The notes: generated by a model not told the origin, from the letters alone. A stretch of DNA of 64,000 nucleotides from Cryomorphaceae bacterium (GCA_020832345.1 JAFIEY010000155.1:4581-68580), one strand, 5' to 3'. Counted from the first letter of the stretch, positions 2,809 through 60,594 are shown. Translations and numbers: made by a program.

Positions 2809-3210
2809 TTAAACCTTATCGTAGTTTAATTTAATCTCCTTCGCTAGGGCCGCAAGTTTCTGGTGATCAGCATTGGTGTTGGCCAAGCGAAAATCCATAT
2901 CTCCTTCCCGATTAATCGGAATTAGGTGGATATGTGCATGTGGAACTTCAAGTCCATAAACGGTAATACCAACCCGGTTACACGGCACGGTTTGCTCTAT
3001 GGCTAACGCAATTTTACGGGCAAAGTCCCAAAGGGCGTGAAAGGCATTTTCATCTAAGTGAAAAAGCTTATCAACTTCCAATTTGGGAACCACCAATACA
3101 TGCCCGTTTTGAACCGGACGAATATCCATAAAAGCAATGGCATGTTCATTTTGGGCGATGACATGAGCGGGTATTTCCCCTCGGATAATCTTGGTGAAAA
3201 TACTGGTCAT
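2809..3210 (-). CDS. HIT-family (histidine triad) nucleotide hydrolase/transferase
   Basis: 133 aa with the histidine-triad motif HAHIHLIP. Confidence 0.85.
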   Translation of the reverse strand: MTSIFTKIIRGEIPAHVIAQNEHAIAFMDIRPVQNGHVLVVPKLEVDKLFHLDENAFHALWDFARKIALAIEQTVPCNRVGITVYGLEVPHAHIHLIPINREGDMDFRLANTNADHQKLAALAKEIKLNYDKV

Positions 3211-3211
3211 A

Positions 3212-3688
3212 TTACTCCATTTTTATATCTATGATATCGAGCATGACAACGCCGCTGGGAACCTGTATTTCTGCTTTTTCACCAACTTTCTTTCCTAACA
3301 GTCCCTTTCCAATAGGACTGTTGACGGAAATTTTACCCGCTTTAATATCAGCTTCAGATTCACTAACGAGCGTATAGGTCATGGTTTGTCCGTTGATAGA
3401 GTTTTTCAAAGTTACAGTAGAAAGTACCATAACCTTGGATGCATCCAGTTGACTTTTGTCGAGCACCCTTGCGTTGGCAATAACATCTTCGAGTTTTGAA
3501 ATTTTCAATTCCAAAAGCCCCTGCGCTTCTTTGGCTGCATCGTATTCAGCATTTTCAGATAAATCACCTTTATCTCGTGCTTCGGCAATTTGGCGAGAAA
3601 TAGAAGGACGAGCTACATTTTTCAGATGATCAAGTTCTTCGCGCAATTTTTTCAATCCCTCCGGGGTATAATAAGAAACTTTCGCCAT
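3212..3688 (-). CDS. greA: Transcription elongation factor GreA
   Basis: YYTPEGLKKLREELDHL...GDLSENAEYDAAKEAQ is the GreA coiled-coil signature. I prefer ATG 3688 (MAKVSYYT, 158 aa) to the track start at 3775. Confidence 0.9.
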   Translation of the reverse strand: MAKVSYYTPEGLKKLREELDHLKNVARPSISRQIAEARDKGDLSENAEYDAAKEAQGLLELKISKLEDVIANARVLDKSQLDASKVMVLSTVTLKNSINGQTMTYTLVSESEADIKAGKISVNSPIGKGLLGKKVGEKAEIQVPSGVVMLDIIDIKME

Positions 3689-18154: not shown

Positions 18155-18901
18155 TTAAATGACTTTAGCTTCGTTGTGGAGTAAATCGACCAGTGTTTCT
18201 ACTTCTCCGGGATCGATCATTTTCACAGGAGCTTTTGGTGCTGGTTTCTCAAAGTGAACAGCCTCAGTACGCATTTGTGCATCAACGGGTTCTACAACCT
18301 TTAGGGGTTTGTTACGCGCCTGCATGATGCCACGCATGTTGGGAATGCGCAAGTCTTTTTCCTCTACCAATCCTTTTTGGCCGGCGATAACGGCAGGTAC
18401 CGAAATTTCACTTTTCTCTTTACCGCCATCAATTTCGCGAATCACTTTGGCTTTTTCACCTTCCACTTCCAATCCTACACAGGCGTTTACAAAAGGCCAT
18501 CCCAGCATGGCGGCCAACATTCCCGGCACTTGTGAACCATTGTAGTCGATTGATTCCCTTCCGGCAATCACCAAGTCATAACCATTTTCTTTAACAATGT
18601 TGGCGATTTGCTTAGCGACAAAAAAAGCATCTTTTGGTTCGGCATTCACGCGAATGGCATCGTTGGCGCCAATGGCCAATGCTTTGCGAAGTGTTGGTTC
18701 TGTTTCTGCGGTTCCTACATTAATAACGGTAACCGTAGCGCCCTGTTTTTCCTGCATCCAAACAGCCCGGGTAAGCCCAAACTCATCATAGGGATTGATG
18801 ACAAAAGAAACCCCATTTTTATCGAATGCTTTGTTGTCGGCGGTAAAATTGATCTTCGCCGTAGTATCCGGCACGTGACTAATACAAACGAGTACCTTCA
18901 T
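18155..18901 (-). CDS. etfB: Electron transfer flavoprotein subunit beta
   Basis: MKVLVCISHVPDTTAKI...INPYDEFGL is typical of EtfB. I prefer ATG 18901 (248 aa) to the track start at 18967. Confidence 0.9.
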   Translation of the reverse strand: MKVLVCISHVPDTTAKINFTADNKAFDKNGVSFVINPYDEFGLTRAVWMQEKQGATVTVINVGTAETEPTLRKALAIGANDAIRVNAEPKDAFFVAKQIANIVKENGYDLVIAGRESIDYNGSQVPGMLAAMLGWPFVNACVGLEVEGEKAKVIREIDGGKEKSEISVPAVIAGQKGLVEEKDLRIPNMRGIMQARNKPLKVVEPVDAQMRTEAVHFEKPAPKAPVKMIDPGEVETLVDLLHNEAKVI

Positions 18902-41711: not shown

Positions 41712-41836
41712 GTCTTTGATAAGAAAACCCCAAAGACAAGGCTTTCAAAGTTTTTGAATCCAAGGCGCTTATATAAAATAAGTAACTGATTCAAAAACTT
41801 TGAGTAACGCAGTATTTGGAGTTTTCTTGCAAAGAC
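41712..41836 (-). repeat. Family-2 palindromic post-stop element (copy after groEL)
   Basis: In gene orientation it reads GTCTTTGCAAGAAAAC...CAAAGTTTTTGAATC-loop-GGATTCAAAAACTTTG...GTTTTCTTATCAAAGAC. It starts 3 nt after the groEL TAA stop. By eye it is about 80% identical to 58671-58793. Confidence 0.8.
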
Positions 41837-41839
41837 AAA

Positions 41840-43480
<1,641 letters not shown>

Positions 43481-56225: not shown

Positions 56226-58667
56226 ATGTTTGTAATTAAAAGAGACGGAAGAAAAGAACCGGTCAAGTTCGATAAAATCACTGCCCGCGTTGAAAAGCTG
56301 TGTTACGGACTCAGCGAAATTGTCAATCCCACCACCGTGGCCGTCAAAGTCATCGAAGGGATTTACGATGGTGTAACGACCACCGAACTCGACAGTTTGG
56401 CTGCGGAAATTAGCGCCAGCATGACAACGCGCCACCCCGACTACGCAAAACTGGCCGCCCGCATCGCCGTTTCAAACCTGCACAAAAACACCGAAAAATC
56501 TTTTTCGGAAACCATGCGCACGCTGCACACCTATATCAACCCAAAAACCAATCTGCAATCCCCACTCATTGCCGATGATGTGATGGAAATCATCGAAGCC
56601 AATGCCGAGCGATTGGATTCAACCATCATTTACGATCGTGATTTTGGGTACGACTACTTTGGGTTCAAAACCCTTGAGCGTTCGTACTTGCTGCGCATCA
56701 ATGGAAAAATTGCCGAGCGTCCGCAACACATGCTCATGCGCGTTTCTGTGGGCATCCACAAAGAAGATATCGAATCGGCCATCAAAACCTACGAGTTGAT
56801 GTCCAAAAAATTCTTCACGCACGCTACGCCAACACTTTTCAACGCCGGTACGCCCAAGCCGCAAATGTCGTCCTGTTTCCTACTCACCATGAAAGACGAC
56901 AGCATTGACGGAATTTACGATACCTTAAAGCAATGTTCAAAAATCTCTCAGTCGGCAGGTGGAATCGGATTGGCAATCCACAATGTGCGCGCTACCGGAA
57001 GTTACATTCGCGGCACCAACGGCACCAGCAACGGCATTGTTCCCATGCTTCGCGTATTTAACGACACCGCCCGTTATGTAGATCAAGGCGGCGGAAAACG
57101 CAAAGGATCCTTTGCCATTTATATGGAACCATGGCACGCCGACATCAACGATTTCCTCGACCTAAAAAAGAATCACGGAAAAGAAGAAAACCGCGCCCGC
57201 GATTTGTTTTATGCCCTGTGGATTTCCGACCTCTTTATGGAACGCGTTGAAAGCGATGGAAAATGGACACTCATGTGCCCCAACGAATGCCCCGGTCTCG
57301 ACGAAGCCTACGGTGCAAAATTCCGCGAACTTTACGAAAGATACGAGGCCGAAAACAAAGGTCGCAAAACCATCAAAGCACGCGAACTGTGGACCAAAAT
57401 CGTTGAGTCACAAATTGAAACGGGCACACCATACATGCTCTATAAAGATGCAGCCAACGAAAAATCCAACCAGAAAAACCTGGGCACCATTCGTTCGTCA
57501 AACCTTTGTACCGAAATCTTAGAATATACTTCACCCGACGAAGTGGCCGTTTGCAACCTCGCCTCTTTGGCCCTGCCCATGTTTATCGAGGACAACAAAT
57601 TCAACCACCAATTGCTGTATGAGGTCACCTATCAGGTCACCAAAAACCTCAACAAAGTCATCGACCGGAATTACTATCCCGTGCCCGAGGCGCGTAACAG
57701 CAACATGAAACACCGTCCCGTGGGATTGGGCATCCAGGGCCTCGCCGATGCCTTTATCATGTTGCGCATGCCATTCACCAGTGAAGAAGCCCGCCAGCTC
57801 AACAAGGATATTTTCGAAACCATTTACTACGCTGCCCTTTGCGCATCAAAAGACGAAGCCAAAGCCGACGGCGCATACGAAACCTTTAAAGGTTCACCCA
57901 TTTCTGAGGGTAAGTTCCAGTTTGATTTGTGGAACATCGATGCCGCCGACCTGAGTGGTCGCTGGAATTGGGAAAGCCTCCGCAGCGAAGTGGTCGAACA
58001 CGGGGTGAGAAACAGCCTTTTGTTGGCCCCCATGCCAACTGCCTCCACATCACAAATTCTCGGCAACAACGAATGTTTCGAGCCTTATACATCAAACATT
58101 TATACCCGTAGAGTACTAAGCGGAGAATTCGTCGTCGTCAACAAGCACCTATTGCTCGATCTGGTCGAACTCGGCTTGTGGGATGAAGAAATGAAGAACG
58201 AAATCATCCGCGCCAACGGAAGTGTCCAGCACATCGAAAACATCCCAGAGGAGATCAAAGTGTTGTACAAAACCGTTTGGGAAATGAGCATGAAAGACAT
58301 CATCGACATGGCGGCAGACCGCGGAATTTTCATCGATCAATCCCAAAGTCTGAACCTCTTCGTAGAGAGTCCCAATCTCGGCAAACTCACCTCCATGCAT
58401 TTCTATGCCTGGAAAAAAGGTCTGAAAACCGGAATGTACTACCTTCGCACCAAGTCCGCCACCGACGCCATTAAATTTACCGTGGGCAAAAAAGCCGTGG
58501 CAGAACCCAGCATCACCGCCGAAAGTCTTCAGCAAAGACAAGTTGACACCAAAACCCTAGGCGAGAAACGTTCGCAGGAACTTTTGGCCGCCAACGGATA
58601 TACCGCCGAAGAGGCCCTCGCGTGTTCGATTGATAATCCCGATGAGTGCGAAGCTTGCGGATCATAA
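56226..58667 (+). CDS. nrdA: Class Ia ribonucleotide reductase alpha subunit with N-terminal ATP-cone
   Basis: 813 aa. [16 protein letters not shown] (ATP-cone), [21 protein letters not shown], and the C-terminal Cys pair CEACGS. Confidence 0.95.
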
Positions 58668-58670
58668 ATT

Positions 58671-58793
58671 GTCTTTGAAGTAAAACGCCATAGACTTCGT
58701 TACTTATAGTTTTTAAATCAGTTACTTATTCATATAAGCGCCTTAGATTTATAAACTAAAAAAGCCTCGTCTATGACATTTTCTTGCAAAGAC
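58671..58793 (+). repeat. Family-2 palindromic post-stop element (copy after nrdA)
   Basis: GTCTTTGAAGTAAAAC...TATAGTTTTTAAATC-loop-AGATTTATAAACTA...ATTTTCTTGCAAAGAC. It starts 3 nt after the nrdA TAA stop and is collinear with the groEL copy. Confidence 0.8.
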
Positions 58794-58799
58794 CAAAAA

Positions 58800-58974
58800 G
58801 GAGGTTTTAATACAAAGCCTAGGGCGCCAGCCGGGCTATCCATTCCAAGTCCTCGCCCCCCAGGCACATTCAGTAAGCCGGAGAAGAGCTTCTAAGGTCG
58901 CTCTTCTCCGGCTTCTTCATGTATGCCTGTGGGGCTGTGGGCTTTCCATTTCTATCCCTGGCGCGAAAACCCCC
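58800..58974. ncRNA. Candidate rod-shaped structured RNA (unclassified)
   Basis: Nested complementary segments. GGAGGTTTT (58800-58808) pairs with AAAACCCCC (58966-58974). GCGCCAG (58824-58830) pairs with CTGGCGC (58958-58964). CCCCCAGGCACAT pairs with ATGTATGCCTGTGGGG. A perfect 13-bp apical stem, GCCGGAGAAGAGC (58877-58889) with GCTCTTCTCCGGC (58900-58912), has a 10-nt loop. Two same-sense strands of about 23-25 nt form a large internal bubble. Confidence 0.35.
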
Positions 58975-58985
58975 GCACGCATCGC
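58932..58985 (+). repeat. 54-bp direct repeat, copy 1 (3' arm of the rod structure)
   Basis: GGGCTGTGGGCTTTCCATTTCTATCCCTGGCGCGAAAACCCCCGCACGCATCGC. It is identical to 60419-60471 except for a 1-nt A-run length difference. Confidence 0.9.
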
Positions 58986-59093
58986 ATGTATTTTAGCACA
59001 GATTGCAGTTATCTGCACACCATCGGGGCTATTATTGTGAAGGGTTTTGCATCTGGTGTCAACCAAAGTTGTGATGAAGGCACTTATAAATTA

Positions 59094-59176: not shown

Positions 59177-60292
59177 TTACCTTTGGTGCGTGCTACAAAG
59201 TTCATAATTTGTGCTTCGTCCACCGCTTGCATCTTTTTGTAAAATATCCTTCTTCATTAAATCTTGAATATCTCGGAGAGCAGTATCCTGTGAGCACTTG
59301 TTGATTTTCGCCCATTTCGATGTCGTCAACTTTCCATCAAAACCATCCAGTAGTCTGTTTATTATTTTTTGCTGCCTATCATTGAGAATTGTTGTAGCAT
59401 GTAATTTCCAAAATTCTGCTTTTTGAAATACTTTAGATAAAGTTTCTTCTGAGGAATAAATCGCATTTAATAAGCATTGTAAAAACCACAAAATCCACTC
59501 TGTAATATCTGAATTTCCTTTTTGTGTTTTCTCAAGTTTTTCGTAATACTTTTTCCTATCCATTCTAATTTGAGCCGACATGCTATAAAAACGTCTAATA
59601 CTCTTATCTGAACGAGCCAACATCATGTCCGTAATTGCCCGTGTAATTCGTCCGTTCCCGTCATCGAATGGGTGAATTGTCACGAACCAAAAATGAGCAA
59701 TAGCTGCCTTAAGAACCAAATCTATTTCATGCTCGCTTTCAAACCAATCTAAGAACGCATTCATCTCTGCTTCTATCCTTTCTGAACTTGGCGCTTGATA
59801 ATGAACTTTTTCTTTTCCCATAGGGCCCGAAACAACTTGCATGGGACCAGTCGTGTCTTTTCTCCAGTCTGCAACTGTGATTTTATAGAGATTACTCCAA
59901 CCTGAAGGGAATAGTGCAGCATGCCAACCAAACAACCTGTCTTTAGTCAAAGGCACATCATATCTTTGTGTAGCGTCAAGCATCATTTCAACGATTCCAT
60001 CAACGTGGCGATCCGATTCCACAGCGCCCGCAATATCTATTCCTAGTCGCCTAGCAATTGAAGAACGTACTTGTCCTATATCCAAAAACTCACCTTCTAT
60101 TTCTGAAGATTTAATCACATCTAAAGTAAGCGTGTTCAAAACCGCTTCATTTTGCAAATCAAAACCAAGCGATTCCATTTTACCCAACAGTCTTCCTTGT
60201 TGGTTTCTTGCTTCCCCAAGTTTTATCATCACTTTTTTATTGTCCCAAGTGAAGTCTGTCCAGTTTTCGTTCTCGTGAATATAAATTTTCAT
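59177..60292 (-). CDS. fic: Fic-family AMPylase (Fic_N, Fic core and C-terminal winged-helix-like domain), class II with an intramolecular inhibitory motif
   Basis: 371 aa from ATG 60292 (MKIYIHENENWTDFTW). Core motif HPFDDGNGRITRAITD. The inhibitory-helix-type motif SSEIEG fits (S/T)xxxE(G/N) and lies upstream of the core. AT-rich compared with neighbouring genes. Confidence 0.9.
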   Translation of the reverse strand: MKIYIHENENWTDFTWDNKKVMIKLGEARNQQGRLLGKMESLGFDLQNEAVLNTLTLDVIKSSEIEGEFLDIGQVRSSIARRLGIDIAGAVESDRHVDGIVEMMLDATQRYDVPLTKDRLFGWHAALFPSGWSNLYKITVADWRKDTTGPMQVVSGPMGKEKVHYQAPSSERIEAEMNAFLDWFESEHEIDLVLKAAIAHFWFVTIHPFDDGNGRITRAITDMMLARSDKSIRRFYSMSAQIRMDRKKYYEKLEKTQKGNSDITEWILWFLQCLLNAIYSSEETLSKVFQKAEFWKLHATTILNDRQQKIINRLLDGFDGKLTTSKWAKINKCSQDTALRDIQDLMKKDILQKDASGGRSTNYELCSTHQR

Positions 60293-60337
60293 TCTCCGCA
60301 AATTATGCGACAAATATACAGCTTATTCTCCGCAAAT
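60291..60337 (-). promoter_or_regulatory. Tandem 13-bp direct repeat at the fic start
   Basis: ATTCTCCGCAAAT occurs at 60291-60303 (overlapping the ATG) and at 60325-60337, giving a 34-bp period. On the coding strand it reads ATTTGCGGAGAAT. Confidence 0.3.
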
Positions 60338-60418
60338 GAAACCTATATTGCAACTACCCGACGTCAATTTTTAGGAATCTCTCTACCTCATGGTGAGAGT
60401 TTTGACATGCGTTGTCCC

Positions 60419-60471
60419 GGGCTGTGGGCTTTCCATTTCTATCCCTGGCGCGAAACCCCCGCACGCATCGC
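60419..60471 (+). repeat. 54-bp direct repeat, copy 2
   Basis: GGGCTGTGGGCTTTCCATTTCTATCCCTGGCGCGAAACCCCCGCACGCATCGC. It lacks the 5' partner arm, so it is a half-copy of the 58800-58974 structure. Confidence 0.9.
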
Positions 60472-60594
60472 TTGGAGATTAGCAAAATACCAGCATATCC
60501 GCTTTTGTGAAATATGCCACCGCTCAACCGTTTGCGGGATAAATAGTAAATCCTTATTTTTGTTCGCCATAAAGTCATCGAACATTCCGATTCA

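Follow-up and report, generated by a model that had tools for sequence, protein, structure and literature searches.

The window, by which we mean the whole 64-kb stretch of DNA that was analysed, carries a folded element between the convergent genes nrdA and fic (Table 1). The ORFs around the element are nrdB, nrdA, fic and small orphan ORFs. In a sequence-only reading of the window the element had been described as a structure of ~175 nt at 58800-58974, after nrdA, and all the sequence features listed for it are present. The identity given to the upstream gene also holds, the ORF being the class I ribonucleotide reductase large subunit by Pfam. Neither the NrdA nor the Fic protein had an exact match on record in public assemblies.

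Table 1. Features of the nrdA to fic region; positions are counted from the first letter of the window.
Feature	Position	Strand	Details
nrdA, class I ribonucleotide reductase large subunit	56226-58667	plus	Pfam ATP-cone, Ribonuc_red_lgN, Ribonuc_red_lgC
'Family 2' palindromic repeat	58668-58790		Lies between nrdA stop codon and Flavo-1 copy; unlike Flavo-1; inverted repeats I15 and I22 to 41721-41842
Outermost helix, GGAGGTTTT / AAAACCCCC	58800-58808 / 58966-58974		9 bp, with A58802/C58972 mismatch; particular to the window copy
Closing helix P0, GCGCC / GGCGC	58824-58828 / 58960-58964		Six covarying types across 31 distinct copies
Flavo-1 (RF01705) match	58825-58967	minus	Model positions 1-76, 24.4 bits, E=0.0022
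Flavo-1 3' arm, GGACUUGGAAUGGAUAGCCC (plus-strand letters GGGCTATCCATTCCAAGTCC)	58833-58852	minus (Rfam strand)	Pairs with the 5' arm
Same-sense 'bubble' strands, CTATCCATTCC / TTTCCATTTCTATCC	58836-58846 / 58943-58957		
Apical region	58853-58938		Family CACAG...GCGAGG motif around an inserted ~85-nt palindrome; perfect 15-bp stem inside
Apical stem	58875-58889 with 58900-58914		15 bp, perfect; 10-nt loop
Flavo-1 5' arm, GGGAUAGAAAUGGAAAGCCC (plus-strand letters GGGCTTTCCATTTCTATCCC)	58939-58958	minus (Rfam strand)	Identical in 20 Cytophagales/metagenome copies
fic gene	59177-60313	minus	DUF4172 and Fic domains; between the full copy and the half-copy
Orphan Flavo-1 half-copy	60419-60484		Repeat families D9 (98% identity) and D13 (88%)

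The 'family 2' palindrome that precedes the element has a contig depth of 42 in the source metagenome, compared with 7 for its flanks (approximately sixfold). The sole exact RNA contig of this organism, a 198-nt contig from a freshwater metatranscriptome, covers 58593-58790 and stops at the 3' edge of this palindrome, 10 nt before the element begins. These two observations would be in keeping with a role of the palindrome as the end of the nrdA transcript, or as a stabiliser of it.

Folding of 58800-58974 with RNAfold gave -83.1 kcal/mol for the plus strand (z -6.46) and -83.7 kcal/mol for the minus strand (z -5.68), and on neither strand did any of 200 shuffles equal the native folding energy. 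The structure noted from the sequence is confirmed, and both strands fold much better than shuffled sequence. Two of the details need amendment. The apical stem, given as 13 bp, is indeed perfect and is 15 bp long. The central 'bubble' does consist of same-sense strands; it is not an open loop, however, as in the relatives of the element it contains a pair of 2-bp helices that covary, along with G.A/A.G mismatches that are conserved. For the minus strand of the window RNAfold yields this arrangement unaided, giving a hairpin of the type described in Rfam for the family Flavo-1, with two 3x3 loops and 2-bp helices, and the arms of the window copy pair through GGG/CCC, UA/UA, AU/AU and AAG/CUU.

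At the level of sequence the element is demonstrably homologous to Flavo-1 (RF01705), a family known from Bacteroidetes and a few Spirochaetes (Weinberg et al, 2010, Genome Biol 11:R31, PMC2864571). Against the full Flavo-1 model the minus strand of the window scored 24.4 bits in a scan of 153 nt, which is under the Rfam gathering score of 42 bits, and the match was seen only when 153 nt were scanned; with 601 nt or the entire window as input, Rfam did not report it. A sister copy (L011) with the same arm sequences and an apex of 53 nt scored 47.8 bits, above the cut-off, and a further copy (L010) scored 29.3 bits. It would seem that the window copy falls below the cut-off because the palindrome of ~85 nt fills its apical loop, as the shortfall coincides with an apex of 93 nt (14-105 nt in relatives). 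Since L011 passes with identical arms and the window copy does not, we refer to the latter as a homologue, or divergent copy, of Flavo-1 and not as a hit by the Rfam criterion.

The agreement in the arms is close. The consensus arms GGGAUWGNARYGGAAAGCC ... GNARYGNAWAGCCC are matched by the window copy with 0 mismatches in both arms. Its minus strand, GCGCCAGGGAUAGAAAUGGAAAGCCCACAGCC...GCGAGGACUUGGAAUGGAUAGCCCGGC, follows the published rows for F. johnsoniae and F. psychrophilum, GCGUGAGGGAUAGAAGUGGAAAGCCCACAGCC...GUGCGAGGACUUGUAACGGAUAGCCCGAC, near letter for letter (PMC2864571), and the 5' arm matches the published Flavo-1 rows 'GGGAUA.GAAGU.GGAA..AG..CC' (PMC2864571). When a 21-mer from the 3' 'bubble' strand was searched for in species-representative genomes, Chryseolinea, Cyclobacteriaceae and other Cytophagales yielded 14 loci between them, each genome having 2-3, and the exact 21-mer was confined to Cytophagales in this set. 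Both 'bubble' strands are nearly unchanged at all 14 loci, while the stems and apex vary.

The window copy shares with Flavo-1 the order of GGG/CCC, 2-bp helix, 3x3 purine loop, 2-bp helix, 3x3 purine loop, AAGC/GCUU and variable apex, as well as the intergenic location and, on the indirect evidence of the 21-mer and of the fic homologues that carry a source name, probably the phylum, Bacteroidota. It also contains the apical CACAG...GCGAGGACUU motif of the 'GCGUKAGGG' subclass, which was published as GCGUKAGGGAUWGNAGYGGAAAGCCCACAGCC...GCGAGGACUUGNARCGNAWAGCCCGACC (PMC2864571); the hosts of this subclass in the published alignment are F. johnsoniae, F. psychrophilum, Gramella and two Bacteroides plasmids, with copies given for F. 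johnsoniae UW101 at 2016697-2016781 and 6000023-5999939 (PMC2864571). Besides its low score, it differs from the family in its closing helix, which is GCGCC/GGCGC in place of GCGUK/MACGC, and it is atypical in three further respects. An apical palindrome of ~85 nt is present, the side hairpin of the three-way junction, found in 30 of 31 relatives, is missing with just 4 nt left in its place, and there is an extra outer helix of 9 bp. No second copy of the long apex was seen in the source metagenomes. A contig from the metagenome run X3, a related sample, matches the closing helix and one arm only (58822-58857) before continuing into a different apex, TCGGCTCCCACGCTGGCTGCGG, so that further Flavo-1 copies of the window subtype are present in that community.

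To describe the family more fully 31 distinct copies were gathered from genomes, metagenomes, one plasmid and viral contigs. On the Rfam strand GGG/CCC and an A.G mismatch are followed in the core by two rounds of a 2-bp helix and a 3x3 loop, and then by AAGCC/GGACUU and the variable apex. The 2-bp helix is UA/UA or UU/AA in the first round and AU/AU or GC/GC in the second, and both loops have G.A and A.G as their closing mismatches. The loop-closing G.A and A.G mismatches are retained in 29-31 of the 31 copies. Helix h2 alternates between AU/UA and GC/CG, and the second copy at the locus L013 shows the double change from AU/AU to GC/GC. In 28 of 31 copies the AAGCC/GGACUU helix has a C.A when read on the Rfam strand, a conserved pair that becomes a U.G wobble on the other strand. 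In the 65 published rows the annotated pairs comprise 1259 Watson-Crick, 46 G.U and 20 A.C pairs, and many columns covary; 15 of the 20 A.C pairs sit in the single conserved C.A column.

A closing helix, which is missing from both the Rfam RF01705 model and the published alignment (PMC2864571), is formed by the 5 nt directly 5' of AGGG and the 5 nt after the small side hairpin. It occurs as CGGCC/GGCCG, GGGCC/GGCCC, GCGCC/GGCGC, GCGUU/AACGC, GCGUG/CACGC and GUGUU/AACAC, and every cell is canonical in the 31 distinct copies. GCGYY...RRCGC is the form in Flavobacterium and phages, CGGCC...GGCCG that in Cytophagales and GCGCC...GGCGC that in the window. As the helices covary in relatives, the single-strand fold is under selection; this is evident from the closing helix and both 2-bp helices, where changes compensate for one another, and from the G.A/A.G mismatches retained at either end of the two 3x3 loops. 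Conservation with covariation had been proposed as a check on the element, and it is borne out, with relatives keeping the core while their helices covary around it. The element is non-coding, structure-selected and missed by standard annotation.

Flavo-1 copies number 96 in F. psychrophilum (2.86 Mb) and 35 in F. johnsoniae (PMC2864571). The published listing for these two species includes one set of six identical copies and one of four near-identical copies. The six letter-identical copies of F. psychrophilum (NC_009613.1: 570785, 1039046, 1244341, 1590815, 1726586 and 2504159) are probably part of a longer six-copy repeat. From the published coordinates 53 copies are on the plus and 43 on the minus strand in F. 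psychrophilum, and 18 and 17, respectively, in F. johnsoniae. There is no orientation-enriched arc of the chromosome and no replichore bias, with 242 and 401 of 500 permutations reaching the observed statistic. A replication-linked function in single-stranded DNA was rejected on this basis, as no replichore orientation bias was found in the published coordinates. Neighbouring copies less than 5 kb apart in F. psychrophilum form 13 pairs, of which 9 are inverted. The 64-kb window itself contains one full copy and one half-copy.

At the 14 Cytophagales loci the neighbours are housekeeping genes with no relation to one another, and convergent, tandem and divergent pairs all occur among them. Deep synteny across families was considered and rejected, as neighbouring proteins of 201/203 aa and two of 325 aa are not homologous. 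Some copies (L005, L007 and L010), on the other hand, occupy sites that are orthologous between three genomes of Chryseolinea. Conservation of the core across orders, together with these orthologous sites, is more suggestive of a function for the host than of a selfish repeat, and the depth of the core conservation argues for some function at the level of the host or of the element. High copy number, random chromosomal orientation and presence on plasmids and phages are all traits that the family displays. The sequence-only reading had named membership of a dispersed palindromic repeat family of high copy number as one outcome that would overturn it, and for the family this is essentially what was found, the element belonging to Flavo-1. 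Taken together, Flavo-1 behaves as a structure-selected dispersed repeat more than as an ordinary small RNA gene.

Comparable repeats are the REP/BIME and REPIN elements of Proteobacteria, which are associated with RAYT, an IS200/IS605-like Y1 transposase, and in which a palindrome of 20-40 bp is marked at one of its ends by a conserved tag, GTAG or CGTC. Flavo-1 resembles them in having many intergenic copies in both orientations, in its compensatory changes, in its close inverted pairs and in marking sites of rearrangement. The differences are that neither Flavo-1 arm contains an invariant GTAG/CGTC tag, there being only GNAG at a variable loop position, that the core forms a long hairpin, set within a three-way junction, whose non-canonical loops are conserved, that the family crosses orders and occurs on phages, and that no RAYT-type gene is among the ORFs flanking the 14 loci. 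Neither a transposase nor any other mobilising gene was linked to any Flavo-1 copy examined, and a search of the literature on Flavobacterium repeats and on RAYT/REP found nothing on Flavo-1. We tentatively favour the window copy being a non-autonomous, structure-selected repeat of REP type and not a dedicated small-RNA gene, and would put this at a little short of an even chance. Such a repeat would fold whenever the DNA that carries it becomes single-stranded, or in RNA as part of the UTR of a neighbour, through passive transcription.

One of the two main competitors is an independent minus-strand gene for a small RNA, in which the purine-rich loops (GAA/GGA and GGA/GGA, closed by G.A) would act as a protein-binding platform or sponge. 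Flavo-1 was classed as a likely sRNA with covariation when it was described (Weinberg et al, 2010, PMC2864571). The excess of G.U over A.C pairs on the Rfam strand of the published rows (46 compared with 20, most of the latter in one column) is in keeping with this, as are the G.A/A.G loop closures, which are sensible only on the purine strand, and the ability of the minus strand to reach the Rfam-type fold by itself. The pairing does not discriminate between the strands when the copies are folded individually, however; in the MFE folds of the 31 copies the G.U counts favour one strand in 12 cases and the other in 14, with 5 tied. Both strands fold equally well, in line with the ambiguity of strand noted in the sequence-only reading. 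Around 100 copies per genome in random orientation speak against such a gene, and in the F. psychrophilum transcriptome Flavo-1 is found sense or antisense to transcribed regions, with many copies in untranscribed DNA (PMC9723704). A scan of the element for sigma-70 promoters and intrinsic terminators gave no signal beyond chance. No RNA contigs or reads lay on 58800-58974 in four metatranscriptomes, in which coverage is thin and contigs show presence and not absence. Given also the phage copies described below, we consider a dedicated small RNA gene unlikely.

Viral contigs were searched with a degenerate pattern for the subclass, which gave 13 contigs (L022-L034), and in 12 of them the element is complete with closing helix and side hairpin. 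The viral copies include 13 independent ones, and 12 of these are flanked on either side by co-directional ORFs to which the Rfam strand is antisense (two-sided binomial ~0.003), whereas the chromosomal copies are without this bias. One of the contigs, L024 (5478 nt, with the element at 62-114), encodes a Phage_F capsid and a rolling-circle Rep protein and is therefore a microvirus. With the orientation found there, the Rfam strand is the one that is never packaged, never single-stranded and never read as sense RNA, which argues against a small RNA made from it. A purely orientation-neutral DNA repeat does not predict the phage bias either. The arms are too short for BLAST searches of plasmids and phages with the element to be informative, and nearly all matches to a pattern for subclass B in the viral contigs were chance matches within coding sequence.

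The phage copies raise the alternative that the element acts in cis in the sense transcript or the sense DNA, which in the window would be the plus strand and the 3' region of nrdA, as a stabiliser of 3' ends, an insulator or a signal in single-stranded DNA. This orientation is the one seen in 12 of the 13 phage copies and on the sense, or virion, strand of L024, the conserved C.A of the Rfam strand is a U.G wobble on the sense strand, and in the window this orientation runs with nrdA. Against this, chromosomal copies show no preference of orientation relative to either flanking genes or replichores, and the only RNA contig of the organism stops short of the element, at 58790. The conserved loop closures would, moreover, be pyrimidine-pyrimidine mismatches on the sense strand; that the G.A closures are structurally sensible only on the Rfam strand is in direct opposition to the evidence from phage orientation and the U.G wobble. 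A cis-acting element of this kind is improbable on present evidence. We are equally doubtful of a broader version, in which the closing-helix subclass of Flavo-1 would be a strand-specific signal of the sense strand (in mRNA, or in single-stranded DNA such as that of microvirus virions) and not a small RNA in the Rfam orientation, the chromosomal copies would be relics or recombination-prone landing pads, and the pair of copies around fic would be an example of the insertion of a gene at such a site.

The second Flavo-1 sequence of the window lies on the far side of fic, where 58932-58998 is repeated at 60419-60484 with 98% identity over 54 nt. Read on the Rfam strand, this half-copy contains ~10 nt of flank, the strand of the outer helix, the strand of P0, the 5' arm and CACAGCCC, and it breaks off at exactly the base of the apical palindrome of the full copy. 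No matching 3' arm is present for it within the 64-kb window. A direct repeat of 54-66 bp (98%) thus flanks a 1.43-kb AT-rich segment in which fic is the sole gene. Relatives of fic number in the thousands, the best 120 having 83-91% protein identity, coming from Cyclobacteriaceae, Bacteroidales and other Bacteroidota and differing in gene neighbourhood from one to the next. The closest homologues with a source name are labelled Cyclobacteriaceae, Bacteroidia and Bacteroidales. Several DNA relatives of fic in the source metagenomes (85-90% identity) have their similarity confined to 59199-60342, which excludes the repeats. It looks as though fic is a horizontally moving single-gene module.

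Genomic islands integrate at tRNA genes and duplicate one half of them, and the element might by analogy have been an att-like target into which a recombinase acting in trans integrated the fic segment, duplicating one half. That the repeats bracket a segment with fic only, that only one of the two repeats belongs to a complete element, the other being an orphan half, and that fic differs in context from genome to genome would all agree with this. There is, however, no integrase in or beside the segment, and four contexts of close fic homologues are without Flavo-1 arms or flanking repeats, which also led us to reject, for these four contexts, a general fic-Flavo-1 cassette. The search for an empty site gave 0 matches to the repeat/flank junction in metagenomes, and no source-metagenome contig has a joint skipping fic. 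In addition, rearrangements by replication slippage typically occur where a long palindrome has its base, and this is where the breakpoint lies. Integration at an att-like site is thus very unlikely. With no recombinase gene, with fic relatives sharing only 59199-60342 and with four contexts free of repeats, a local rearrangement is favoured, and the half-copy is most simply the product of one that broke at the palindrome base.

There are also parallels with the attC sites of integrons, whose marks are R''/L''...L'/R' boxes, with GTTRRRY as the core, and a neighbouring intI gene. Both are imperfect palindromes with a conserved non-complementary centre and a variable terminal structure (3 to >80 nt), and both adjoin a single promoterless-looking gene. 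In contrast to attC, the element has no R''/R' GTTRRRY core at either end and no integron integrase nearby, its second site is a half-copy and not a full site, and Flavo-1 as a family is without replichore bias.

The long palindrome between the convergent nrdA and fic was most likely the point of a break or template switch, from which the half-copy of 66 bp past fic arose. Considered as a whole, the explanation that 58800-58974 is a divergent, long-apex copy of Flavo-1 belonging to the closing-helix subclass, together with its REP-like nature and the local rearrangement, is reasonably probable.

6S RNA is an abundant discrete transcript of ~180 nt that has a large open bubble at its centre, by which it imitates a promoter in the melted state. 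The proposal from the sequence-only reading that the architecture is 6S-like, with an RNA mimicking an open promoter and sequestering RNA polymerase, is extremely improbable, as the likeness goes no further than the length of ~175 nt, the rod shape and an internal non-Watson-Crick region, neither RF00013 nor 6S-Flavo RF01685 is matched at E<=10 (in the 601-nt and the 153-nt scan, both strands), the 'bubble' is conserved in sequence and internally, if partly, paired, the family is multi-copy and found on phages and plasmids, and no transcript was found in the four thinly covered metatranscriptomes.

What appeared to be a new RNA of ~175 nt is therefore an elongated copy from a family that was published in 2010, and for the window this is mainly a result of annotation. 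As standard Rfam thresholds miss copies with a long apex, Flavo-1 is probably under-counted. The choice between RNA gene and DNA repeat has been a question for Flavo-1 since 2010, and three observations bear on it: the covarying closing helix outside the Rfam model, the lack of strand or replichore bias in 96 + 35 copies and the strong orientation bias in phage contigs. Together these narrow which experiments could decide between the two.

Three other arrangements of Flavo-1 copies were observed. On the Bacteroides thetaiotaomicron plasmid p5482 a copy (L021:1455-1535, record 18657-18733) is located directly after the terminator hairpin of a DUF4425 gene, which itself follows traO, in an unannotated gap of 520 bp. 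At L013 an inverted pair of copies (L013:3513-3649 and L013:5596-5715) surrounds two genes, encoding a protein of 203 aa and a luciferase-like monooxygenase of 343 aa. In Chryseolinea several copies (L001:~2950-3400, L003:1800-3100, L004, L006 and L016) sit in tandem arrays of a unit of ~57 nt; this unit contains GTTGGTGTTCTTCACCAACAA and CAGCTTCGAGCCTCATTCC, and a fragment of it is also found inside the apex of the element.
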